This document shows, piece after piece, positions 1,369 through 13,691 of a stretch of DNA of 13,691 nt. Origin of the DNA: a virus (taxonomy: Duplodnaviria; Heunggongvirae; Uroviricota; Caudoviricetes); the IMG/VR virus record IMGVR_UViG_2734482780_000014, positions 1 through 13,691 of that record; one strand, 5' to 3'. The notes beneath the pieces are model-generated. The model searched no databases. It saw nothing but the letters and a program-made list of their open reading frames with translations, and was not told the origin of the DNA. Both the position numbers and the translations under genes were made by a program. The stretch's first letter is position 1, and each line of letters starts with the position of its first letter.

Positions 1369-1444
1369 GCCGATATAGCTCAGTTGGTAGAGCAGCGCAT
1401 TCGTAATGCGAAGGTCGTAGGTTCGACTCCTATTATCGGCACCA
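1369..1444 (+). tRNA. thrW: tRNA-Thr (anticodon CGU), 76 nt with encoded CCA
   Basis: GCCGATATAGCTCAGTTGGTAGAGCAGCGCATTCGTAATGCGAAGGTCGTAGGTTCGACTCCTATTATCGGCACCA: cloverleaf with D-loop AGCTCAGTTGGTAGAGC, anticodon loop TTCGTAA, T-loop GGTTCGACTCC. Position immediately after proA fits thrW. Confidence 0.95.
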
Positions 1445-1458
1445 TTAAAATCAATAAG

Positions 1459-2622
1459 TTATACATCATTAGTACCTTCCTTATTTTTTGACTGGGACAA
1501 ATTTGGGACCGATGGGTTCAGGATCGAGTCTATTTGCCGTGCGTGTTCGGTAAGGTGATTAGGTGCAAGGTGAGCATATCGACGAACCATTTCGATAGAC
1601 TCCCAGCCTCCCATTTCCTGTAAAACTGACAACGGGACTCCGGCTTGAACCAGCCAACTTGCCCAGGTGTGTCTCAAGTCGTGAAATCTGAAATCATCAA
1701 TACCAGCCCGTCTCAGCGCCGCTTTCCAGGCTGTGTTTGCGTCATACCGCATCTTCCTTACTGTTGGCGCTTTCGTTCCGTCTGGTTTGGTACAGCTTTC
1801 CTTGTACACAAATACCCAACGGTGATGATTCCCGATTTGTTTTTTCAATACGCGACATGCAGTATCATTCAGCGCAACGCCAATTGCGCGGTTTGATTTA
1901 CTCTCTTCCGGGTTTATCCATGCCACCCGGCGCTGCATATCTATTTGTTGCCATTCAAGGTTGATGATGTTCGAGCGTCTTAAGCCTGTTGCCAGTGCAA
2001 ATTCAACAACAGACTTTAATGGCTCCGGACATTCATCAATCAGCCTTTGTGCTTCATGGGGCTCCAGCCAGCGGATCCGTTTATTCTTTGGTTGAGGCAC
2101 TTTAATAATTGGTGCCTTATCCAGCATTTTCCATTCACGCTCTGCGGCTCTTAGTAGGGCCTTTATAAATGAAAGATGCGTAGCCTTCGTTGCAACGGAC
2201 GCTGGTTTTGGCGTGTATTCTGGAACAGGTTTCCCTTTTTTTCTGCATGCTTCTGCCCTGAGTTTCCAGTTTTCCTCATGACGCCGGTTCGTCATTTTCT
2301 GCATTGCTGAATAAATTTTTGATTCAGTAATGTCTCTTAGTTGCATTCCTGCGAAATGTTGAAGCCAGAATCCGATCCGGCTTTTGTCATCGTCCAGTGA
2401 TTTTTTATGTGCTTTCTCTTCAAGCCACCTGACACACGCTTCCTCGAACGTTATATCAGGTATTTCACCAAGTTTGCTGACCCGCCATGCTTCAGCCTTT
2501 AGCTTGTCATGGAGTTCTGTCGCCTGCCTTTTGTCCTTTGTTCCAAGAGACTGTTTAAATCTTTTACCGTTCGGCAATGTGAAACTGGCGTACCATATTT
2601 CACCTCTGCGGAAGAGTGACAT
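1459..2622 (-). CDS. int: tyrosine site-specific integrase, P22 Int-like, 387 aa
   Basis: 387-aa ORF adjacent to thrW; translation closely resembles phage P22 integrase as remembered (MSLFRRGE...HDLRHTWAS...VRRYAHL); ATG at 2622 with SD AGAGGAAAG upstream. Confidence 0.94.
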
Positions 2623-2849: not shown

Positions 2850-3154
2850 TATTTCACCTCTTGCTGTGACATTGTTGAAAAATGGATACCAGCTCGTTGC
2901 TGCCAGACGATCCAACCGAGAGTCATATCCCATGCCATGTATTCGTTATCGCCGTTTTTTGCTCTCCGACGATCTACTAAGTCACCGAAACGCTTTTCCA
3001 TGAATAATTCATAAGCTTCGCGTTCATCTGGTTCTACTTCCAGAGATAGGAGTGCGATTTCATAAGCACGGCGCTCAATATCGTCTCGCACGTCAAGGCT
3101 GCTGATACGCTCTTTAATTTCTTTAATCAGTTCTTTGTCGGTAAAAGTGGTCAT
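2849..3154 (-). CDS. yfdT: hypothetical early-left phage protein, 101 aa (YfdT-like by size and position)
   Basis: ORF with ATG at 3154; its stop overlaps the xis ATG (TAATG). Symbol assigned from remembered CPS-53 gene sizes and order (yfdP 120, yfdQ 274, yfdR 178, yfdS 120, yfdT 101), not from alignment. Confidence 0.55.
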   Translation of the reverse strand: MTTFTDKELIKEIKERISSLDVRDDIERRAYEIALLSLEVEPDEREAYELFMEKRFGDLVDRRRAKNGDNEYMAWDMTLGWIVWQQRAGIHFSTMSQQEVK

Positions 3155-3516
3155 TATGCTCCAGCCTCCGGTGCTTTTGGCATTACTGCCCAGTGAGTGA
3201 TATTGACGTTTTCAAGGTCCCCGACCTGAAATGTCCACTGCCATTCTCCGGTTTCTTTTTGTCCCCAGGTGTACCAGAGAGAACGCCAGCCAATTAGCCA
3301 GCCTTCTCCGTTAGCATCGAATAACAAAACACTTTCATTTGCTGGTGGCAGTTCAGTTGACACTGGTATTACTTTGTTTTCCTGTGCTGCACATTTAGCT
3401 TCAAGCGCATCGAATTTACGCACCAGGTATTCAGCATCTGTTTCATTTACTTTCAGATCTCGCGGTACACATCTCCCACGAAGAAACCCTTCCATTTCGA
3501 AAACATTCATGCGCAT
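3154..3516 (-). CDS. yfdS: hypothetical early-left phage protein, 120 aa (YfdS-like)
   Basis: ATG at 3516 (second ATG at 3510 forms an ATGA overlap with the upstream stop); its stop overlaps the next start as TAATG at 3154. Confidence 0.6.
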   Translation of the reverse strand: MRMNVFEMEGFLRGRCVPRDLKVNETDAEYLVRKFDALEAKCAAQENKVIPVSTELPPANESVLLFDANGEGWLIGWRSLWYTWGQKETGEWQWTFQVGDLENVNITHWAVMPKAPEAGA

Positions 3517-4043
3517 TTGCGTAACTCCGATAACTCGTTAAAGCGTTCCATAAACATCCCGTAGGCATGGCCCGGTGCCAGTGGAATCACGTTGAACATC
3601 TCTGTTGCCGGGATACCTTCCAGTACAGGCCAGAAAGAGCCATCATCAAGCCCGAGATCGCGGCGTTCGGTTGCCAGCATGATGAGATCGGCATATTTCA
3701 CGGGCGTACTCATAACTGGGGGTAACCCGTATTTCTCACGGATTACGGCGTCTATTTTTTCTTCCATTTGTTTATAGTCAGGAAGAAGGCGTTTCAGTGG
3801 TGCGGGAATGTCCTGGCAATACGCTTCTGTTGCATCATGCATTAACGCTTCAAAAGCAAATTCCTGCGGCACCAACTGGCTGCAAAGAACCGCATGTTGG
3901 GCGACGCTGTAGAAGTGCGAAAGATGACCGGCAAAGCGACAGATATTTGAAAGGGAAACCGCGATATCGTTAATATCGATGTCGTCTTTATTTATCCTGT
4001 CATAATAAAAATGCTTCCCGGAAAAAGTTTTAATAAATGACAT
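3507..4043 (-). CDS. yfdR: HD-domain phosphohydrolase (YfdR-like 5'-deoxynucleotidase family), 178 aa
   Basis: H...HD signature (..LMHDATEAY..) in the translation; ATG at 4043 preceded by GGAG 8 nt upstream. The ORF-track start at 4070 is a GTG extension. Confidence 0.8.
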   Translation of the reverse strand: MSFIKTFSGKHFYYDRINKDDIDINDIAVSLSNICRFAGHLSHFYSVAQHAVLCSQLVPQEFAFEALMHDATEAYCQDIPAPLKRLLPDYKQMEEKIDAVIREKYGLPPVMSTPVKYADLIMLATERRDLGLDDGSFWPVLEGIPATEMFNVIPLAPGHAYGMFMERFNELSELRKCA

Positions 4044-4170
4044 TTTGTTCTCCACGTATATGCGCTGCACCGCGCTGAATTCTGGTAAAAAGAATCCCTC
4101 ACCATCCGGCGATTATTGAGTAAATTACGTTTCCATAAATGCCCCCGCAGGGGCATTTGCAGTAATGAAA

Positions 4171-4995
4171 TCAGGCGGTGAAAGTACCAATAAAGGTTTC
4201 TACTTTGCTGTCCTTGAATTTCTCAACAAGCAGATCACGAAATTCGTTAGCCATTTCTTCCTGCACCGCCTCCAGCTGAATAATGCGCAGAACCAGTACA
4301 GGACGATCGCCAGTGATAATACTGAGGCGTAATTTAAACGGACGTTCTTTCAGACCTTCAAACGGAACGCATTTAAATTCAAATGCCACTGGCATAATGT
4401 CTTTGATCTTCGCTTCGACAGACTCCATCAGGGAGCGTTTGCCGCTGAAGTCATTATCTTCAAAATCAGCGGTCTGGTTTGCTTCAATCGTGATTTTACG
4501 GACAGCCGCAGCCGCTTTTGTTGCCTGAATAGCGTCACCATTAGCATCAAAGCCCACAAGATAGTCGGCCCAGTCTTCAATCCATTCTGCCAGTGACTTC
4601 TGGGAGTTACGCTCGCCGTTAACAGACAACAGAGCAGAGAACGGTGCTGTCTTTTTCAGTTTGAGTGTGGCGGTGTTATCTGCGTGACCTGGTTCATCAA
4701 TAGTACCCAGGTTAAGCACACTGACGGCACGCATATTATCAGCATCGATAAAGCAGCGGGTGCCTTCATCTGCAAGATCTTTAGAATAACGGGTAAAGTC
4801 ATCGATGCTGGCAGTGGAAAGCGCACCACGGAAACGGAAGCGATTTAAATTAAATTTTTCCAGATCATGAATGCGGAAATTCTCAGGCAATGCCACAGCA
4901 TCGGCACCAATCTTACTGATAATTTCATTAACACCCTGAGCAGAAATAAGGGCATGGATTTGATTAATTGAGGTTGCGTCTAAGTTCTGAGACAT
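4171..4995 (-). CDS. yfdQ: hypothetical phage protein, 274 aa (YfdQ-like, DUF2303-type by recollection)
   Basis: ATG at 4995 with SD GAGGA upstream; size and position match yfdQ of CPS-53. Confidence 0.65.
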
Positions 4996-5060
4996 AATAA
5001 GTCCTCACTATATAAAGATATTCAGTGATGAGATAAATAATCAGTTAATTAAAAACGATA

Positions 5061-5423
5061 TTAACGACCTGCTGCGCGGAGTTTTCCGTCAGGTTCACCG
5101 GCAAGAGTCAGTAACTGTCCCTGGTCTTCCTGCAGAATAGTCAGGCGACCACCGCGATTGACATACATCGGCGTTTCGGTGGTGTCTTCTTCGGAAATTT
5201 TCCCGCGGTTAGTCGGGCGAACATATGAGAGTTTGTGTTTGATTTTCACACGGTTCTCATCAAATGGTTCGATTTCCAGGTTGAGTGAGACCTTACCTTT
5301 GGTTTTCGTGTTCATCACACCGGAAGCGACTTCACTGAGAACTGCGCCGATTTTGGTTTCAAATACGCCGCCGTCCAGCTCCCCGATAAATGCCTGCACA
5401 TCAGTACTGCGTTCGCTAGCCAT
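5061..5423 (-). CDS. yfdP: hypothetical phage protein, 120 aa (YfdP-like)
   Basis: ATG at 5423 preceded by GAGGAG at 8 nt. The upstream 106 codons of ORF 5061-5741 are Arg/Cys-rich read-through of GC-rich non-coding DNA and were excluded. Confidence 0.65.
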   Translation of the reverse strand: MASERSTDVQAFIGELDGGVFETKIGAVLSEVASGVMNTKTKGKVSLNLEIEPFDENRVKIKHKLSYVRPTNRGKISEEDTTETPMYVNRGGRLTILQEDQGQLLTLAGEPDGKLRAAGR

Positions 5424-5471
5424 TTTGCTGCTCCTCATCATATCGACCCTGCAAGGCCGATTAGTTTCTCC

Positions 5472-5560
5472 ACAAAACAGAGAAGAACACCTGCGGTGGC
5501 AGCCGCCCGGATGGATTGGGTTATGAGCCCGTCGTCCGGTGATGCTCTTCTCTGTTTTGT
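5472..5560. repeat. perfect 14-bp inverted repeat (ACAAAACAGAGAAG / CTTCTCTGTTTTGT) flanking a 61-nt GC-rich spacer
   Basis: Arms at 5472-5485 and 5547-5560 read directly; lies in a ~470-bp region with no credible ORF on either strand. Confidence 0.7.
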
Positions 5561-5824
5561 AAAAAGGACGGTACCAGCCGGAAGCAAGGGTACAAACTGG
5601 TACCTCCAGGACTACACACAGCATAAAGTTGTGGTGCCGGGTGCCTCCCGGTGCCTGGCGAAGGTTGCACACCAGACGGGTGGGTATCCACAGAAGGTCG
5701 ACTGTCAGCCTCAACCTTAACCCGCGTGCGCTGAGCCGCATTCACCACAACGCTAAGGATTCTCTCTGGTTAAAAATACTTAGCTGTTATGTGCCTGCTT
5801 TTAGCCACATCAGGCGAGGTGGAC

Positions 5825-5876
5825 CTGGTTATTCCCCAACAACAAGGATTCGGTTAATCTGGTTATCCCCAACAAC
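5825..5876 (+). repeat. two direct repeats CTGGTTAT(T)CCCCAACAAC with 34-bp period, immediately upstream of the 5892 start codon
   Basis: Copies at 5825-5843 and 5859-5876 differ by one T; further GGTTA motifs at 5767 and 5853. Confidence 0.7.
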
Positions 5877-5891
5877 GCAAAAGGAAAAGAA

Positions 5892-6326
5892 ATGTCCGGT
5901 AATATCTACACGCTGTACAAATCCCACTGTGAAAATGTTGGAAAGTATCGGGGCATTGAAATCAGTGGGGTAGTGTCATCAGTCGAAATAAGCAAAGTGG
6001 AATCAAGGGCAACATTACTTACTCTTCTGGACCTTGTCTTACATGAGCACCGGAAGAAATTCGGCACTCCCTATAATCAGTTGAATGGGAAAAAGGCTCT
6101 GGTTCACCTTATTCTGATGAAGCATCACTGGATGCCAAAACAGATTAATGAGATGAAATTTGATGAACTTCTTCTTTCAATTCAGGATGAACTCACACTT
6201 GATAAAATAAGCGTAACCGCCCAGAAATTTTTAGATTATCGAGACTGGAGATCACAAATTCATCACTTTGATGATTTTGACGAAAATGAATGGGATCCTA
6301 ATTTGTCTGCACAATATCTAAAGTAA
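5892..6326 (+). CDS. hypothetical protein, 144 aa; AT-rich moron opposite to the leftward early operon
   Basis: ATG at 5892 with AAGGA 6 nt upstream; clearly more AT-rich than flanks; no recognisable motif; acidic C-terminus. Confidence 0.7.
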   Translation: MSGNIYTLYKSHCENVGKYRGIEISGVVSSVEISKVESRATLLTLLDLVLHEHRKKFGTPYNQLNGKKALVHLILMKHHWMPKQINEMKFDELLLSIQDELTLDKISVTAQKFLDYRDWRSQIHHFDDFDENEWDPNLSAQYLK

Positions 6327-6504
6327 CATCCTGTGATAAAACCGTGATTTCCTGATCCAGTTTTTTTAAGGAGTCTATTGTTTCCTGTCGATAAGACAGC
6401 ACTTCACGAAGCTGGTTTATAGCTGCCAGCTTCTTTGCCATCCACTCGTAAATTTCCTCATCTGTGTAGCCAGGCGCGACGATTTTGGGTTCTGTTTTGT
6501 GCAT
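6298..6504 (-). CDS. hypothetical small protein, 68 aa (first gene downstream of candidate pL; acidic, coiled-coil-like, not N-like)
   Basis: ATG at 6504 preceded by GAGGAG at 9 nt; the ORF-track start at 6519 is TTG. Its 3' end overlaps the 144-aa ORF convergently by 29 nt. Confidence 0.6.
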   Translation of the reverse strand: MHKTEPKIVAPGYTDEEIYEWMAKKLAAINQLREVLSYRQETIDSLKKLDQEITVLSQDVTLDIVQTN

Positions 6505-6548
6505 TTCACATCTCCTCAAGTTATCAGTTACTTGTTGATGGGGACCAG

Positions 6549-6561
6549 ATTGTTAAAGAGC
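6549..6561 (-). promoter_or_regulatory. rrn-type boxA-like element GCTCTTTAACAAT in the pL leader RNA, immediately 3' of a hairpin
   Basis: Minus-strand sequence matches the remembered rrn boxA core (TGCTCTTTAACAAT...) at 13 of 13 positions; lies between candidate pL and the first leftward gene. Confidence 0.5.
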
Positions 6562-6563
6562 TA

Positions 6564-6587
6564 AGCGTCCTGTAGGGCGCTTTTTTG
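6564..6587 (+). terminator. intrinsic terminator for plus-strand transcripts (stem AGCGUCC/GGGCGCU, loop UGUA, then UUUUUU)
   Basis: 7-bp stem with one G-U pair followed by a T6 run on the plus strand; the same hairpin on the minus strand precedes the boxA-like element. Confidence 0.55.
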
Positions 6588-6671
6588 TTGCTAACGAATC
6601 ATCCTGGACTTCATATGCCCCAGGCGGCTACTTCGTGGGCGTCCTGCCTGTTTGTTGTTTCGCTTGGGTAC

Positions 6672-6699
6672 ATTATGTATCTCAAAGGTACATTATCAA
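6672..6699 (-). promoter_or_regulatory. candidate pL (-35 TTGATA 6699-6694, 16-nt spacer, -10 CATAAT 6677-6672) overlapped by GGTACATTAT direct repeats (putative OL)
   Basis: Hexamers read on the minus strand just downstream of the repressor terminator; GGTACATTAT copies at 6667-6676 and 6687-6696 overlap the -10 and -35. Confidence 0.45.
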
Positions 6700-6702
6700 G
6701 TA

Positions 6703-6727
6703 TAAAAAAACCTGCCGAAGCAGGTTC
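6703..6727 (-). terminator. intrinsic terminator downstream of the repressor gene (stem AACCUGC, UUCG tetraloop, U7 tract)
   Basis: Minus strand reads GAACCUGC-UUCG-GCAGGUU followed by UUUUUUU, 12 nt after the repressor stop. Confidence 0.7.
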
Positions 6728-6738
6728 ATAAACATTGA

Positions 6739-7413
6739 TTAGGCTTTGATTTTGTATCTTCTTGGTTTTCCTGAGAAAATCACTGTACCAATTATAGAGC
6801 AATTACCGTTGATCTTAATGTAAGGCTCAGGCCAGTTTGGGTTTAACGCTTTGAGATAACGCTGTGTCCCATCTTCTATCAACCTTTTGAAGGTGGTTTC
6901 ACCTGTATCGTGCATCAATGCAATAACGTCGTCACCGTGGCAGGCAGGTACTTCAGGATCGACAAAAATCATGTCTCCCGGGCGGTACTCATCAATCATT
7001 GAATCACCTATCACCCGCAAGATATAAGTCATTTCCCCACAGGGTACAGGGCAGGGATACGTTTCTGCTGTGCTCAAATCAACCTCAGAATATCCAACTT
7101 CTTTCCATGCTCCGGCCTGTACCCATGATATGACAGGGACTAATGTGATTTGTTTATTAGTGATTGAAACATCAGGTTTTTTTGTGATGTTCGTTGTCTG
7201 GTGTTCTTGATCGAGCCATCCGACAGGCAGGTCGAAACATTTTTCGATGTGTCGTGCCATGCTGTCACCGATATTTTTAGTAGCACCATCTCCCATAAAC
7301 CTGCTGGTCTGGGTTGGCTCGCGATCAATCATAGTGGCAAAGGAAGAATTCCCGCCAACACCATCTCTCAGTTTTCTGGCGTTAGACCGCCGGATGTCAT
7401 GGATTGTTTTCAT
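6739..7413 (-). CDS. CI-type prophage repressor with C-terminal S24 LexA-like peptidase domain, 224 aa
   Basis: C-terminal region resembles P22 C2 (..VIGDSM.. and LNPNWPEPYIKINGNCSIIG vs remembered LNPQYPMIEINGNCKIIG); divergent to a cro-like gene across an operator region. Confidence 0.9.
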   Translation of the reverse strand: MKTIHDIRRSNARKLRDGVGGNSSFATMIDREPTQTSRFMGDGATKNIGDSMARHIEKCFDLPVGWLDQEHQTTNITKKPDVSITNKQITLVPVISWVQAGAWKEVGYSEVDLSTAETYPCPVPCGEMTYILRVIGDSMIDEYRPGDMIFVDPEVPACHGDDVIALMHDTGETTFKRLIEDGTQRYLKALNPNWPEPYIKINGNCSIIGTVIFSGKPRRYKIKA

Positions 7414-7428
7414 AACGAAATTAAAACC

Positions 7429-7449
7429 CTTGTACCGTTAAGGTACAAG
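7429..7449. promoter_or_regulatory. operator palindrome CTTGTACC-GTTAA-GGTACAAG (GTAC-N7-GTAC)
   Basis: Perfect 8-bp inverted arms in the repressor/cro intergenic region. Confidence 0.6.
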
Positions 7450-7453
7450 TATC

Positions 7454-7481
7454 TTGAAGGTTCATTTCAATCATGTAATAT
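7454..7481 (+). promoter_or_regulatory. candidate pR (-35 TTGAAG 7454-7459, 16-nt spacer, -10 TAATAT 7476-7481)
   Basis: Hexamers upstream of the cro SD GGAGG (7489-7493); the second operator overlaps the predicted start site. Confidence 0.4.
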
Positions 7482-7498
7482 GTACACCGGAGGTACAT
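7480..7498. promoter_or_regulatory. operator palindrome ATGTAC-ACCGGAG-GTACAT (GTAC-N7-GTAC)
   Basis: Same half-site and spacing as the 7429-7449 palindrome. Confidence 0.55.
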
Positions 7499-7503
7499 AT
7501 TGT

Positions 7504-7704
7504 ATGAAAGCGTATTGGGACTCTTTAACCAAAGAACAGCAGGGCGAGTTGGCCGGAAAAGTTGGCTCAACACCTGGCTACTTACGGCTGGTTTTCAATG
7601 GCTATAAAAAAGCCAGTTTTGTGCTGGCTAAAAAACTTGAGCAATGCACGTCAGGTGCAATTACGAAATCTGACTTAAGACCGGATATCTATCCGAAAGA
7701 TTAG
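7504..7704 (+). CDS. Cro-like HTH regulator, 66 aa (YdaS/Cro family with LRPDIY motif)
   Basis: ATG at 7504 preceded by GGAGG; divergent from the repressor. The larger ORF-track call 7201-7704 is antisense to the repressor and only its last 66 codons are credible. Confidence 0.75.
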   Translation: MKAYWDSLTKEQQGELAGKVGSTPGYLRLVFNGYKKASFVLAKKLEQCTSGAITKSDLRPDIYPKD

Positions 7705-7735
7705 CAGAACACTTTCAATTTTTAACCACAGAACG

Positions 7736-8299
7736 ATGAGGCTAATCGTGGGTAAGCATCACTGGAAAATAGAAAAACAGCCTGAGTGGTACGTGAAAGC
7801 TGTCAGAAAAACTATCGCGGCGTTGCCGGGTGGTTACGCTGAAGCGGCTGACTGGCTCGATGTAACAGAAAATGCTTTATTCAACCGCCTTCGTGCAGAT
7901 GGCGATCAGATTTTCCCGCTGGGATGGGCAATGGTTTTACAGCGTGCTGGTGGCACTCACTTCATTGCTGATGCTGTGGCGCAGTCTGCAAATGGCGTCT
8001 TTGTGTCTCTTCCTGACGTCGAGGATGTGGACAACGCCGATATCAACCAACGCCTGCTGGAGGTCATTGAACAGATCGGCAGTTATTCAAAACAGATTCG
8101 TTCAGCAATTGAAGACGGTGTAGTGGAACCGCATGAGAAGACAGCAATTAACGACGAGTTGTACCTCTCAATTTCGAAGCTGCAGGAGCATGCAGCACTG
8201 GTCTACAAAATTTTTTGCATTTCAGAAAGTAATGACGCCCGCGAGTGTGCAGCTCCGGGCGCCGTGGCGTGTCGTGACTGTGGAGAAACTAACGCATGA
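7736..8299 (+). CDS. hypothetical phage early protein, 187 aa (possible CII-like/YdaT-like regulator; function not verified)
   Basis: First gene after cro; ATG at 7736 (alternative GTG at 7748 after GAGG); its stop overlaps the next start as ATGA. Confidence 0.65.
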
Positions 8300-8634
8300 A
8301 CAGTTTAACAACACACTACCGTCGCTCGCAACTTATTGCGCTTCCTGTACCGGGTGGAAAAGCGAAGGTGGAGTATTGCTATGCAGTGAATGTACCAGGT
8401 GACAGGGAAATTGTAACCCACAGCTTTGCAGAGTGGGCTGTGGGGGATTTCAACCGGCAGAAGGAGGCAGTCCTTTGCGACAAGTTAACCGCTGGTTCAA
8501 AGATCACTACGGAGTGCCCGTCAGAGTCATTCGTTGGGAGCCGGAAACACAACGGGTTATCTACCTCCGTGAAGGCTATGAGCATGAGTGCTTCAGCCCG
8601 CTCGAACAGTTTCGTCGTAAATTCAGGGAAATAG
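8296..8634 (+). CDS. hypothetical protein, 112 aa (possibly YmfM-like by size and position; see frameshift finding)
   Basis: ATG at 8296 overlaps the upstream stop; the C-terminal third is Ser-rich and low-complexity, while an alternative frame (8433-8654) reads more protein-like. Confidence 0.45.
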
Positions 8635-8643
8635 AGGTCGGTC

Positions 8644-8886
8644 ATGAGCACTAAATTAACCGGCTATGTATGGGATGGTTGCGCAGCGTCAGGCATGAAA
8701 TTATCCAGCGTGGCAATTATGGCCCGCTTGGCTGATTTCAGTAATGACGAAGGTGTGTGCTGGCCATCAATTGAAACCATTGCCCGCCAGATTGGCGCGG
8801 GGATGAGTACCGTCAGAACGGCTATCGCACGGCTGGAAGCAGAAGGCTGGTTAACGCGTAAGGCGCGTCGCCAGGGTACCGGGTGA
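8644..8886 (+). pseudogene. N-terminal winged-HTH fragment (80 aa) of a phage replication initiator (O-like), truncated
   Basis: ATG at 8644 with GAGGT upstream; translation has the HTH pattern typical of phage replication-initiator N-termini (recognised from memory, not aligned); the ORF stops after 80 aa and is followed by tail-fibre sequence. Confidence 0.55.
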
Positions 8887-8950
8887 TGACTCTCCGGGAG
8901 AAAACAAAAGCCAGACCGACTACTGGCAGGAGCTGAAAGAGGGCTTCTCC

Positions 8951-9166
8951 GTGGTTGTCATACTGAGTAACGGGCGTGATGAGCGCGGTCAGTTTGCCTC
9001 GTATGATGTGGTGGACGATGTCCGGCAGATGCTCTTTAAGGCCCTGCTGGGCTGGAACCCGGCTATTACAGAGGGTGGTGTTGTTGCGGCAACGACTAAA
9101 CCTGCAGGTGCGAATGAAACACGCCCACGAAATGTCGCTTTTAACTATATTGTGAGGGCTGCATAA
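8951..9166 (+). pseudogene. C-terminal fragment of a side tail fibre protein (variable part)
   Basis: Ends ...NETRPRNVAFNYIVRAA with stop overlapping the tfa ATG (TAATG) as in stf-tfa pairs; the frame is open only back to 8855, so the N-terminal bulk is missing. Confidence 0.6.
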
Positions 9167-9768
9167 TGAATAACGCAGAATTAAACAGTGAATTAATTGC
9201 CACTATGGCAGGAGAAATTACTGTTTATAACTTTGACGTCATGAGTCGGGAGTATATTTCAGCTTCAACTGAATATCTTGCTGTTGGTGTCGGCATTCCG
9301 GCATATTCCTGTTTAGATGCTCCAGGCACCTACAAAGCTGGTTATGCAATCTGCCGCTCTGCAGATTTTAACTCATGGGAATATGTACCAGACCATCGCG
9401 GTGAAATTGTCTTTAGCACCGAAACAGGAGAATCAAAAGAAATCACAGCACCGGGTGATTACCCTGATAATACAACCACTATCGCCCCGTTAACGCCATA
9501 CGATAAATGGGATGGTGAGAAATGGGTGACGGATACCGAGGCACAGCATAGCGCCGTAGTAGATGCAGCAGAAGCACAGCGCCAGTCGCTGATTGATACA
9601 GCAATGGCTTCTATCAGTCTGATTCAACTGAAATTACAGGCCGGACGGAACCTGACGCAGGCAGAAACCGCCCGACTTAACGCTGCGCTGGATTACATTG
9701 ACGCGGTGACGGCAACAGATACCAGCACCGCACCGGATGTCATCTGGCCTGAACTGCCGGAGGCGTAG
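9166..9768 (+). CDS. tfa: tail fibre assembly protein (Tfa), 200 aa
   Basis: C-terminus ...DYIDAVTATDTSTAPDVIWPELP matches the conserved Tfa C-terminal motif. Confidence 0.88.
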   Translation: MNNAELNSELIATMAGEITVYNFDVMSREYISASTEYLAVGVGIPAYSCLDAPGTYKAGYAICRSADFNSWEYVPDHRGEIVFSTETGESKEITAPGDYPDNTTTIAPLTPYDKWDGEKWVTDTEAQHSAVVDAAEAQRQSLIDTAMASISLIQLKLQAGRNLTQAETARLNAALDYIDAVTATDTSTAPDVIWPELPEA

Positions 9769-10171
9769 GCCATTCAATATCTGGCGCACTGGAAGTATCG
9801 ACCAGTTCCAGTGCGTCCAGATAATCCAGCCACAAATTATATTGCGCCAGTTCCTCACCTTTCAGACGACCAATCGCCGCTTTACCAGGCCATTGTTTAC
9901 TGTTCATGTATTCGTTGGCCTGATTAACTAATCGCTGTTTATTTGATTCAGCGATTGAGATTAATTCTTCGCTGGTAAGTGGTGGCGCATCCTGCCATGC
10001 TGGAAAACCATTTTTATCTGAACCAAGTATTTTACCATCAGGCCATGCAACTCCTGCGAACTCAGAATAAATAGTAAAGTTTATTTTCGTAGCGTTCTCA
10101 GGAATGGTTTGGCTATCTGGTGAAATATAAAATCCCGAATCAGAGGGATTAAAATAATATGTCTTTTCCAT
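9740..10171 (-). CDS. tfa: tail fibre assembly protein (alternate, opposite orientation), 143 aa
   Basis: C-terminus ...WLDYLDALELVDTSSAPDIEWPTPP; convergent 29-nt overlap with the plus-strand tfa, as in invertible tail-fibre segments. Confidence 0.88.
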   Translation of the reverse strand: MEKTYYFNPSDSGFYISPDSQTIPENATKINFTIYSEFAGVAWPDGKILGSDKNGFPAWQDAPPLTSEELISIAESNKQRLVNQANEYMNSKQWPGKAAIGRLKGEELAQYNLWLDYLDALELVDTSSAPDIEWPTPPAVQAR

Positions 10172-10173
10172 AG

Positions 10174-10572
10174 TTAATACCCCACAGCCATCCAGTAAAT
10201 TGAATTTGTTGTAGCAGAAGTGTAAGTAAATCTGATTTTAGTTCTGTTGGTACTTCCAATATCAAAGCCCACAGAACGGGCAGAAGGATCATTAGTTGAA
10301 ATAAGAGCGTTTACCGAACGACAAGCAGCAGGGAAAGCTACAGGTAATGTTATATCAACTGTTCCAACACTTCCTCCGGTTGGTGAGACAGAAAAACTCC
10401 CCCATTGAATAATCATCCCCCCAGGTAATTTCTGGTATCCATTGGCGGTCAATGAGTTACCAAAGCTGTTTATATCCGGTACCTGATTTTCTCCTGTCCC
10501 CACATTCCTCTTTGCCGCTTCTCCCAAACCAACGTTTATGAAAATGCAGAAATAACGAGCAAATGGCATCAT
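10174..10572 (-). pseudogene. alternate tail fibre C-terminal variable domain (inverted orientation), lacking the constant N-terminal part
   Basis: Immediately upstream of tfa' on the minus strand; the N-terminal about 18 codons read through the recombination site and pin leader. Confidence 0.6.
10519..10544. promoter_or_regulatory. Hin/Gin/Pin-type recombination site (hix/gix-like) TTCTCCCAAACC-AA-CGTTTATGAAAA
   Basis: About 20 of 26 positions match the remembered hixL consensus, including AAACC/GTTT half-site cores and AA centre; located just upstream of pin. Confidence 0.5.
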
Positions 10573-10598
10573 TCCTGCTTTTGTCAGGGAGATCTACC

Positions 10599-10790
10599 AT
10601 GCTTATTGGCTATGTACGTGTGTCAACAAATGACCAGAACACAGATCTACAACGTAATGCGCTGAACTGTGCAGGATGCGAGCTGATTTTTGAAGATAAG
10701 ATAAGCGGTACAAAGTCCGAGAGCCTAGGGCTGACACTGCTGTTCTTGATGCAAATTAAAGGATTTAATAGTGAGTTGTGGCCTTACTAA
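10599..10790 (+). pseudogene. pin: truncated DNA invertase (Pin/Gin/Hin serine recombinase); homology covers only about 42 N-terminal residues
   Basis: MLIGYVRVSTNDQNTDLQRNAL.CAGCE.IFEDK.SGT... is nearly identical to the e14 Pin N-terminus as remembered, then diverges (..SESLGLTLLF..) and stops at 10790; ATG at 10599 after AGGGAG. Confidence 0.85.
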
Positions 10791-10799
10791 TGTAAGGCC
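10780..10799. terminator. hairpin GGCCTTAC-TAAT-GTAAGGCC between the convergent pin' and GmrSD-like genes (possible bidirectional terminator)
   Basis: Perfect 8-bp stem; moderately T-rich only on the plus-strand side; sits where pin homology breaks down. Confidence 0.3.
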
Positions 10800-10823
10800 G
10801 CTATAATCATTTTATTAATTGCA

Positions 10824-12713
10824 TTAATCGTGTTTTGGCCATACTTTCAATGCAATTTCCCCCAACTTTTTACCCCGCTCCAGGATTTCACCTTCATCCC
10901 ATTTATCCTTAAGTATAAGTGGTATGTTCAGTCGTAGATTGGTGTGGACGATGAGAGCATCACGTTTTTTCAGAAATACAGCATTCTGAACAGAACGGTT
11001 TACGCTAAGGTTAAGCAAAGTTAGATTTCCCAACGTAGCTATCGCTTGTTGCCGTTTCCTTACCAGTAGCTGTTCAGGGGTAAGATCTGTTCCAGACAGA
11101 ACAATTTGGTTCAATACCGTTGCATCTGAATTTGTCACCATATGACCATTTTCGAGAGGCCAACAGGAATACCAACTTTGAGGCATAAGATGATCGATAT
11201 CGAGATTGGAAAGATTTGGAACATCAGGCTTCTCTGTCTTCACTTGGCGACAAAGTTCTCTTTCAAGTTCCGTTAACATTGAGCGCATTTTCGGTGCGTC
11301 GAGCCTGCCAGGATAAAGTGGAGCATTGATGCAAGCATTGAGAAATTCTGAGTCACCAGGCCAACGTGAGGCTTCGCCATTTAAGCTATTGAGGATATTA
11401 CGTAACTCAACACTGGAAATTTCCGTTTTAGACAAGTGCCGCAATACATTCATAAATACATTGTTGTAATTCTTTGGCGTCAGGCCACATACGGCTCTTC
11501 GTACTACGTAGGAGACAAGATCATTATACATGGCTGCTTTCTCACCATCGGCGATGTTAGCTATCGAAATGAACAAAGCAAGCGGATAAAGTGTCGTCAC
11601 ATCATAGGCTGCGATGCGATGTCCAAAGTGTGAGATGGGGGTTGTGCCAAAACCACCAACCAATTCTTTATATTGTGATGCATATTGTTTGAGGCGCTTT
11701 ACTTGCAGATCAGCTCGTTGTGAAGGCAAGTCCTTACTTACATAATCACGATACTCATTGTAAAGACGAGACAGATCAATTTCACGTTGCCTTTCTGATT
11801 GCAATGTCGCATGCACTAGCCACTCCATGCGTGGTTTATTAATACGTCCACGGCGTTGCCTTTCCGACCAGTATGTATCTTCAAAGCTCTTCCACTCATT
11901 TTCATATAATTCAATAGCATTAATATTTTCATGCTCAGCGCACATAAAGATGTAGTTGCGAATAAGATCCGTGGCATGAAGTTCCGCCCCTCGGCCATTT
12001 AATGTTTCAAAAATTATTTGGGCATCATCTTCAGCTTCGAGAAATATGCTTACCAGTTTCAGATCCGTCAAGACAGCCTCAATTAGTGCTACAGCATTTT
12101 CATGTGGTGAGTACTTTTCTATTTTAATCCATTTTATAAAGGCTTCAGTAAAAAACCATAATGCCTCTAGTGACGGCGGGTGGTTGAAATGTTTACGTAA
12201 CGTACCATGTTGCGTGAAGCTATCAGAAAATACATCACGGAGATCGTCAATGTTTTCAACATTAAAACTTTGAATAAAATGAGTTTGGTCTCGAAAAGTT
12301 GGCCACAGTTTGAAGCATTCTACCTTTTTATTTCGCATAGTTGCTTCGTTTGTATTTTTCAAGCAAGTCAATACTAACCCTTCCAAATCAGAAAGGCCTG
12401 TAGCACGCAATGATAATCGAATGGATGCCAGAATATATTGAAGAGTGGTTAAACGTTGCTGGCCGTCAATAATATGTATGGTATCTACACCTAACAAGCT
12501 GTTTTTGAGTTGAGGTTCCAGCACCACCGCGCCAAGGAAATGGGGAGTTGGTTTTGTTCCCAAAAGTCGGCTATGTGCTTTTTCGAAGATATCCTCCAGC
12601 AAAGCTGACCATTGGTTTTGTTGCGTCCATACGTAGGCACGTTGATAGAATGGAACACGATATTGTCGTTGATTTTGGAAAAGTTGCTGGATGGTTAGCG
12701 TTTCGGATTTCAT
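10824..12713 (-). CDS. GmrSD-family type IV restriction endonuclease-like protein (N-terminal DUF262, C-terminal DUF1524 His-Me finger), 629 aa
   Basis: N-terminal VPFYQRAYVW and IIDGQQR motifs; C-terminal DIDHLMPQSW nuclease motif; ATG at 12713 with AGGT upstream; AT-rich compared with proA. Confidence 0.8.
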   Translation of the reverse strand: MKSETLTIQQLFQNQRQYRVPFYQRAYVWTQQNQWSALLEDIFEKAHSRLLGTKPTPHFLGAVVLEPQLKNSLLGVDTIHIIDGQQRLTTLQYILASIRLSLRATGLSDLEGLVLTCLKNTNEATMRNKKVECFKLWPTFRDQTHFIQSFNVENIDDLRDVFSDSFTQHGTLRKHFNHPPSLEALWFFTEAFIKWIKIEKYSPHENAVALIEAVLTDLKLVSIFLEAEDDAQIIFETLNGRGAELHATDLIRNYIFMCAEHENINAIELYENEWKSFEDTYWSERQRRGRINKPRMEWLVHATLQSERQREIDLSRLYNEYRDYVSKDLPSQRADLQVKRLKQYASQYKELVGGFGTTPISHFGHRIAAYDVTTLYPLALFISIANIADGEKAAMYNDLVSYVVRRAVCGLTPKNYNNVFMNVLRHLSKTEISSVELRNILNSLNGEASRWPGDSEFLNACINAPLYPGRLDAPKMRSMLTELERELCRQVKTEKPDVPNLSNLDIDHLMPQSWYSCWPLENGHMVTNSDATVLNQIVLSGTDLTPEQLLVRKRQQAIATLGNLTLLNLSVNRSVQNAVFLKKRDALIVHTNLRLNIPLILKDKWDEGEILERGKKLGEIALKVWPKHD

Positions 12714-13298
12714 TGTTTACCTATAAGTGACATTCCACAAGAGTAAGAAATTCATCTGAGTCAGAATAATCATTTTTATGTAGTCATGATACAGTGTATT
12801 TGTTGCTGGTGAAGTAAAAACGAGAAATCCCGCTTTTGAATGCTGACGTGCTACGGCTTCATTGGATATTCTCTTTTGTCTGTTCTCCATTGCGTCGGTG
12901 TTTTGTCGAGATTGTTAGCACACTGTTGCTGCTGTTTTTTTATCCAAGCGCTGCTAAATCATTGTAGATGGCACTATCGGGTATTGAAGCTGCAGACATG
13001 TCGTATACAATAGTCAGCTGCGACTGGCTGGTGAACTTCCGATAGTGCTAGTATTGAATTATGTCAAGCCGTTATCGATTTTACGTATTTTTTGTATGAG
13101 AGGATTTGCACCTCCTCCCACCGCTCCTCCATGACTTTACGCCACTGTCTCTAGGGCTGCTAAGTGCCAGGAACGGACATTGGTGGTATGCAGGATCAGA
13201 GGGGAATAAAAAACTTATTATATTGATTAAGATGGGGCTATTCTTGGCGACTTAAGCCGATATGATACAGATCAAGTGTGCTCTTTTAGGGTTCCATA

Positions 13299-13691
13299 TT
13301 GATTAACAGAAAATTAATTGTAGAGTTAATCGTATATTTCATGAGAGATGAATTGATTCGTGGATTTTCGAAGTGGGGGCGTCGGGTAAAGACTGACCTG
13401 ACACAGATGGATGAATCTTTCCCAATAATGCCGATTTTTAATGAGCACATCAATTCTATTTTCAAAGTGTATATTCTATTCAATGAAAAATATCACATCA
13501 CAAAAGCTTTAAAAGCAAAAGAATTCATAATAAACTTCATTGGAGAGAGAGAGGATTATATTGATGATGAATACATTATCGCAGAACTAAAAAATACACA
13601 AACAGGTTTGAGTATAAACAAAAAAACCATTCCTACATCAGCGCTTGAGAAAATATCCGATTTTTACAGAATAAAAGAATACCTATTTTAG
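13299..13691 (+). CDS. hypothetical protein, 130 aa (116 aa if it starts at ATG 13341); very AT-rich, divergent from the GmrSD-like gene
   Basis: ORF ending with TAG exactly at the window end; TTG at 13299 follows AGGG by 7 nt, ATG at 13341 has no SD; no recognisable motif. Confidence 0.5.
   Translation: MINRKLIVELIVYFMRDELIRGFSKWGRRVKTDLTQMDESFPIMPIFNEHINSIFKVYILFNEKYHITKALKAKEFIINFIGEREDYIDDEYIIAELKNTQTGLSINKKTIPTSALEKISDFYRIKEYLF

Follow-up and report, generated by a model that had tools for sequence, protein, structure and literature searches.

The 13,691-nt stretch of DNA analysed here, referred to below as the window, very probably carries the right-hand two-thirds of a decayed invertible tail-fibre segment of the e14 P type, locked in one orientation. 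The switch is locked because its left crossover site has been lost: Din-family invertases require two sites, and a single site gives no invertase, whether resident or acting in trans, a partner. Judged by homology, the relic is a known and ordinary thing, a decayed copy of the textbook P segment of e14. Its importance beyond correct annotation is small, and its worth as an example is that the decay of a phage host-range switch in a cryptic prophage can be traced in full, as three events with their breakpoints mapped. The intact element would have worked as follows. The constant 5′ part of stf would lie outside the segment, a serine invertase would recombine two inverted 26-bp sites, and each inversion would join the constant part of stf to one of two alternative cassettes, each consisting of a C-terminal domain and a chaperone.

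The window begins with proA (1–1254), followed by the thrW tRNA-Thr(CGU) gene (1369–1444), which is the sole match in an Rfam scan of the window. To the right of thrW lies a tyrosine integrase gene on the minus strand and then an early region with a LexA/S24-type repressor, and the left 8.9 kb of the window is 99% identical to thrW-integrated prophages in many E. coli. The right border of the prophage was located on a public contig with 100% identity to window positions 2951–13691. It is marked there by attR, in which the 3′ end of thrW is repeated, ~490 nt past the window's right end. By these comparisons the window is the E. coli proA–thrW locus with a decayed e14/SfV-like prophage of ~12.8 kb, and everything up to the right end of the window, including the GmrSD gene described below, falls between the borders of the prophage.

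The right-hand crossover site is a 26-bp sequence at 10519–10544 on the plus strand, TTCTCCCAAACCAACGTTTATGAAAA, with the central dinucleotide AA at 10531–10532. As site references, the e14 region of K-12 and the G region of Mu were retrieved; the Mu sites extracted in this way fall on the annotated ends of the G segment, which validates the procedure. The sequence at 10519–10544 is found once in the window at ≤3 mismatches and in none of 200 shuffles. It is identical at 26/26 positions to the site beside pinE in K-12 e14, a proven site of the Din family, and likewise at 26/26 to the site in three other E. coli prophages. Mu gixL and gixR each share 17/26 positions with it, the conserved core included, and of the 16-nt e14 repeat described in the literature, CCTTCTCCCAAACCAA, it contains 15 nt (PMC12529663). 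The hix-like 26-bp site that the initial annotation had placed here is thus present, and it is the e14 site.

To look for a partner, every 26-mer of the window was scored, on both strands, against the left and right sites of e14 and Mu. A second crossover site is absent from the window: the best 26-mer other than the site itself has 9/26 mismatches, and the minima obtained from 30 shuffled sequences are 7–10 mismatches. The window therefore holds one site where a switch would have two inverted 26-bp sites flanking the segment. This pattern search on both strands, with mismatches allowed, agrees with the initial annotation in that there is no inverted partner. The place at which the partner had been expected, 8890–8960, does not hold, since the left site, CTCTCGAAAACCTTGGTTTGGGAGAA, falls inside the tail-fibre gene of the intact copies in K-12 e14, AH65, and Sx181-0-1, ~490–505 nt upstream of the stf stop codon, where it encodes a conserved ...ENLGLGE... 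join. The true left site of these relatives maps onto DNA that has been deleted from the window. The stretch visible to us is 13.7 kb, and partner sites may exist elsewhere in the same chromosome.

The deletion that took the left site can be read from the sequence to the left of the cassettes, as follows. The gene at 8644–8886 (plus strand; Pfam HTH_36) is a truncated early gene of a helix-turn-helix, replication type, with ~78 of ~313 codons left and 99% identity to full-length genes up to 8881/8882. It ends in deletion junction 1, mapped by comparison with prophage loci L003 and L008 to a GGTA microhomology at 8875–8878. The next segment, 8879–9055 on the plus strand (Pfam Phage_tail_terminator), comes from the interior of a tail-terminator gene of the SfV orf9 type; its 177 nt correspond to approximately nt 404–580 of the 561-nt tail-terminator gene in L008. 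More than 500 E. coli records contain a gene, named "phage tail terminator protein", to which the fragment is 100% identical, and the translation of the fragment gives 100% matches by tblastn in SfV (orf9), SfI, SfII, and SfIV. Deletion junction 2, at 9056–9062, is a 7-bp microhomology, AACCCGG, between the tail-terminator and tail-fibre genes on the plus strand, established by a base-by-base, three-way comparison of the window, L008, and the Sx181 prophage (L001). Tail-fibre homology to the intact relatives begins only at 9056. From there to 9166 (plus strand) is the end of an StfE-type variable part, comprising the last 36 codons and the stop, with the sequence ...NPAITEGG...ETRPRNVAFNYIVRAA. 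This stf gene has lost ~127 variable codons together with the left crossover site and its constant part. In short, the left site was lost because an internal microhomology deletion, beginning midway through the tail-terminator gene, extends to the last 36 codons of stf.

The same deletion fused the tail-terminator fragment in frame to the stf C-terminus, so that a chimeric 71-codon ORF extends over 8951–9166 on the plus strand; from its composition, the ORF is evidently an accidental by-product of the deletion. The initial annotation had taken the whole ORF for stf. That reading holds for 9056–9166, which is tail fibre, and fails for 8951–9055, which is tail-terminator sequence at 100% identity. 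Accordingly, the remnant of the segment begins not at 8951, as had been supposed, but at 9056, where tail-fibre homology starts. The chimeric ORF also served to recover the lineage, by an exact-protein look-up, and its exact protein is encoded on at least nine public contigs. Window positions 8600–10900 are 100% identical and colinear in four independent assemblies, two NCBI drafts and two Logan assemblies, and a fifth contig spans both deletion junctions. Assemblies GCA_000819245.1 and GCA_043676575.1 are among those that carry the locus. An exact scan for junction 2 in a one-genome-per-species contig collection, which is without this lineage, gave 0 matches, and the double junction is in no complete E. 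coli genome examined.

At the other end of the segment, the invertase gene is reduced to a stump. The pin remnant at 10599–10721 (plus strand) retains 41 of 184 codons, identical to K-12 PinE, its start being at 10599 and not at the ATG at 10563. Homology to pin stops at 10721/10722, and the ORF continues for 22 unrelated codons to a stop at 10788–10790. A likeness of codons 42–50 to PinE (GL..LL) was considered and is too weak to shift the breakpoint. The Pfam Resolvase N-terminal domain covers only residues 3–45 of the ORF, equivalent to profile positions 2–52 of 145. Thus the stump keeps the active-site serine region (VRVST) but has lost the remainder of the catalytic domain and all of the DNA-binding domain, and no full-length serine invertase, with catalytic domain and C-terminal HTH, adjoins the site. 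The truncation of pin noted in the initial annotation is confirmed.

The missing 3′ part of pin was removed by a replacement module at 10722–12991; homology to the Sx181 prophage resumes at 12992. The module encodes, at 10824–12713 on the minus strand, a 629-aa protein that from its domains is a GmrSD type IV restriction enzyme. Pfam GmrSD_N (DUF262; E = 8e-34) and GmrSD_C (DUF1524/HNH; E = 2e-18) are joined in one protein, and the PADLOC model mREase_IV matches it over its full length at 1478 bits. In the Sx181 prophage, pinE is intact and a GIY-YIG gene comes after it. What had been called an insertion is, by this comparison, the exchange of one cargo cassette for another downstream of pin, in the position that mcrA occupies in e14. 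Of 5426 complete E. coli genomes, 321 cover at ≥80% a 151-nt probe across the pin′/GmrSD breakpoint, and the breakpoint is both old and widespread. The genomes that share it include more complete prophages (AH65 and 14EC001) and a differently deleted one (IAL7252). It had been proposed that the recombination machinery was lost to the neighbouring insertion; this is correct for the 3′ part of pin, which gave way to the GmrSD module, and incorrect for the left site, which went in the separate microhomology deletion. In the hin system, a 65-bp enhancer is found ~100 bp from hix (PMC3798978). Since ~190 bp of pin 5′ sequence is retained past the centre of the relic's site, the Fis-dependent recombinational enhancer may, by analogy, be retained as well.

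Between the deletion and the site, three cassette ORFs remain. The tfa(+) gene at 9166–9768 encodes a TfaE-like tail-fibre assembly protein of 200 aa (Pfam Caudo_TAP, E = 9e-33), identical to K-12 TfaE at 175/201 positions (87%) and of the same length as in the Sx181 prophage. Convergent with it, the tfa′(−) gene at 9740–10171 on the minus strand encodes a TfaP-like assembly protein of 143 aa (Pfam Caudo_TAP, E = 5e-30) in which all 144 positions aligned with the Sx181 protein are identical. The third, stf′(−) at 10174–10572 on the minus strand, is an StfE2-type ORF of 132 aa (Pfam Gp53-like_C, E = 9e-19). Its 17-aa leader, MMPFARYFCIFINVGLGE, encoded at 10533–10572, is outside the segment, its Gp53-like C-terminal receptor-binding domain is inside, and the two are fused at the crossover site. 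The three ORFs are intact and have the lengths seen in functional relatives; either the deletion could be recent or the ORFs could keep some function. The order tfa(+), tfa′(−), stf′(−), site, and pin, which the initial annotation had likened to the P segment of e14, matches that of K-12 e14 directly. In place of two convergent cassettes plus a constant stf part outside the segment, the inventory is both tfa genes and one variable part intact, 36 codons of the other variable part, and no constant part.

Would the loss of pin have been enough to freeze the switch? Work in K-12 argues that it would not. PinQ, PinR, and PinE act in trans, inverting the e14 sites, and the P segment no longer inverts when one inverted repeat is removed by deleting stfP or stfE (PMC12529663). 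A switch with a dead pin would not be frozen by that alone, because other invertases can serve in trans, and genomes with the same dead pin do carry the cassette in either orientation. A synthetic flipped query, with an inverted StfE-type cassette joined to pin′–GmrSD, matched three complete genomes end to end at 98.4–98.9%, and AH65, with the same dead pin, has the other cassette orientation. This polymorphism among the siblings could reflect either inversion in trans after the death of pin or the exchange of cassettes by homologous recombination. It follows that a truncated invertase gene alone is no proof of a frozen switch.

The relic differs from the sibling loci that keep both sites and occur in both orientations. 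In the four independent assemblies spanning the locus, it has one orientation and a single site, bearing in mind that this is an assembly consensus and not a population state. With one site, no partner, and the same orientation in all four, the earlier suggestion that the segment is frozen is upheld. A search of complete genomes for the window's right-hand arrangement (stf′ cassette, pin′, and GmrSD) found none at ≥80% coverage. As to which state has been frozen, window positions 9116–9907 match the opposite strand of e14: with MG1655 as the reference, the TfaE-type cassette has been flipped. The locked state, read from this alignment, is the "inverted", StfE2-type one, with the TfaE-type cassette pointing rightward and the StfP/Gp53-like domain joined to the pin-proximal leader.

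Three events, in this probable order, led to the present structure. In the first, the GmrSD module replaced the 3′ three-quarters of pin; this event is old and common to many E. coli. In the second, a microhomology deletion joined the early gene for replication to a point midway along the tail-terminator gene. In the third, another microhomology deletion joined the tail-terminator gene to the last 36 codons of the tail-fibre gene, removing the left crossover site along with the constant part and the late promoter context of that part. The GmrSD replacement probably predates both deletions, and it is likely that no working tail fibre is expressed from the relic.

Several other readings of the locus bear on this history. 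The junctions themselves, which bring together a replication gene, a tail-terminator gene, and a tail-fibre end, have an unusual look, with two of them within 180 bp, and this look is all that would speak for their being assembly artefacts. It is scarcely credible that they are: two NCBI drafts and two Logan assemblies from different runs agree at 100% identity over these 2.3 kb, a fifth contig runs over the junctions, and both are at microhomologies, as is typical of real deletions. Nearly as improbable is a switch that still works through a degenerate and unrecognised left site in the window. Its one candidate is 6339–6350, where the core AAACCNNGGTTT is matched a further time with a single mismatch. 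We rejected this match as a partner: it is at the chance level, with ~0.4 expected per window by our estimate, its flanks are unfit, and its centre is GT, where TT would be needed to pair with AA. The match is also found in L003, at the equivalent position in the early region. Over the full 26 bp the best candidate, at 9 mismatches, is no better than shuffles, and the true left site of the relatives falls in the deleted DNA. A further proposal, very unlikely in our judgement though less so than the last, treats the orphan site as a live substrate, with Pin-family invertases of other prophages pairing their own sites with it and thereby causing large chromosomal inversions or deletions. The 26/26 identity to a proven functional e14 site is in keeping with this, as is the ~190 bp of pin 5′ sequence, which would include the enhancer if it is placed as in hin (PMC3798978), and Pin paralogues do act in trans (PMC12529663). 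Against it, each of the four assemblies that extend across the locus remains colinear there.

More attractive, and still unlikely, is the idea that the relic was kept for a function, the locked StfE2-type ORF and its Tfa chaperone forming a permanently ON, receptor-masking anti-phage protein. StfE2, the product of e14 inversion in K-12, has been reported to block the adsorption of T2 (PMC12529663). When its sequence was reconstructed by in silico inversion of the e14 segment, K-12 StfE2 proved to be 37% identical to the minus-strand ORF over the full length (E = 1e-15), with the same MPFAxYFxIFINVGLGE leader and the same domain layout. The locked state thus resembles the "defence-ON" StfE2 state of K-12 e14, as a structural parallel only. 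The three cassette ORFs are intact, with lengths as in functional relatives, and a GmrSD defence gene adjoins. However, a recent deletion predicts intact ORFs equally well, and the known copies of the relic are all 100% identical, which provides no signal of selection. Moreover, the sequence upstream of the minus-strand ORF contains no sigma-70-like promoter, promoter-like matches in 8600–10900 are no commoner than in shuffles, and the receptor-binding domain has diverged from that of K-12 StfE2. It is tempting to go one step further and, by analogy, suppose that the loss of the left site fixed the StfE2-type state and set constitutive receptor masking beside a type IV restriction gene in a defence hotspot at the prophage end, but we would give this version slightly less credence again. 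The reading that we prefer, which nothing in the sequence contradicts, remains that of a locked remnant of a P-type segment.

Siblings of the relic include the thrW prophage remnants of AH65, 14EC001, and IAL7252, which have the identical pin′/GmrSD breakpoint and the same chromosomal site. AH65 and 14EC001 keep the constant stf part, the left-hand site, and both cassettes, with the cassette they share in opposite orientations; the left-hand site of 14EC001 differs by 2 nt in its inner half. IAL7252 has a different internal deletion. We considered whether IAL7252 might be the flipped state of the same segment and rejected this, as it has a different stf allele beside pin′ and a deletion of its own. 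None of the three has the double junction of the window.

At a greater distance, the G segment of Mu, with Gin, has the same architecture, Sc / site / Sv-U / U′-S′v / site / invertase. The positions that gixL and gixR share with the relic's site include the core AAACC..G.TTT, and the 5′ end of pin has 77% DNA identity to gin. Compared with Mu G, the relic has one site and a 41-codon stump of an invertase, and its cassettes are from different sequence families. The C segment of P1 with Cin and the H segment of Salmonella with Hin are inversion switches of the same type as Mu G/Gin.

The P segment of K-12 e14 (stfP-tfaP-tfaE-stfE plus pinE) is the known system that the relic matches in its gene order, with convergent stf/tfa pairs adjoining pin. 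The two have an identical right site, the first 41 residues of Pin are identical, and TfaE is 87% identical. In contrast to e14, the relic has neither a left site nor the constant part of stf, one of its variable parts is mostly deleted, and its pin is cut after codon 41. Its prophage is at thrW, whereas e14 is at icd. The cassette adjoining pin in the relic is of the StfP/Gp53-like kind, flipped with respect to MG1655, and 37–42% identical to that of K-12. In K-12, inversion of e14 driven by PinQ, PinR, or PinE leads to StfE2, and the system needs both repeats (PMC12529663); the relic's ORF beside pin′ has the same leader and domain plan, in a state that is unswitchable. Finally, a defence gene follows pin in both elements, mcrA in e14 and GmrSD in the relic.

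The 3′ end of thrW is repeated directly, as attL and attR, at window 1399-1461 and at positions 11228-11290 of L009, a public contig that is 100% identical to window 2951-13691. The L009 copy lies ~490 nt past the right end of the window, and the pair of repeats encloses the entire prophage remnant, a segment of ~12.8 kb. The integrase gene (1459-2622, minus strand) is intact, so excision of the remnant might still be possible. The immunity and early region, at 6739-8299, is also intact and encodes an S24/LexA-like repressor homologous to YmfK, a Cro-like YmfT homologue, and YmfL. The region is 99% identical to its counterpart in full-length prophages, so a cell carrying the remnant may still be immune to superinfection.

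Next come two separate deletion junctions, each at a microhomology, GGTA at 8875-8878 and AACCCGG at 9056-9062, with 180 bp between them. Together they stitch a replication gene, a tail-terminator fragment, and the end of a tail-fibre gene into one open frame, the 71-aa chimeric ORF (8951-9166, plus strand), which is annotated as a gene in public assemblies. This ORF, and then the tail-fibre assembly gene tfa(+) (9166-9768), would now lie directly in the path of rightward early transcription.

Among E. coli genomes sharing the breakpoint of the pin invertase stump (10599-10721), the adjacent cassette varies, being either of the StfE type (“phage tail protein”) or of a Gp53-like type. A cassette shared by strains 14EC001 and AH65 is found in opposite orientations in the two. 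This variation beside a dead pin is consistent with inversion in trans by other Pin paralogues, with recombination as the alternative. The AH65 stump itself (7536-7679 of the AH65 sequence, L002) contains a short diverged patch, reading YVFVSTNDQKID where the window has YVRVSTNDQNTD, in otherwise near-identical surroundings. The pattern suggests that a small tract was acquired by recombination or gene conversion, the putative donor being another pin paralogue.

Beyond the stump lies an intact gene (10824-12713, minus strand) for a 629-aa GmrSD-type type IV, modification-dependent restriction enzyme (PADLOC mREase_IV, 1478 bits). Downstream of it, ~540 nt present in AH65 (L002 10255-10794) are missing at window ~13314-13318, inside a 903-nt hypothetical gene, so ORF 13299-13691 is a shortened variant. 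The cargo slot after pin holds the predicted GmrSD gene in the window, whereas in the K-12 prophage e14 it holds mcrA, and in strain Sx181-0-1, which carries an intact relative, a GIY-YIG gene and, after it, one for an ATP-dependent nuclease. This end of the prophage looks like a hotspot for the exchange of defence genes.
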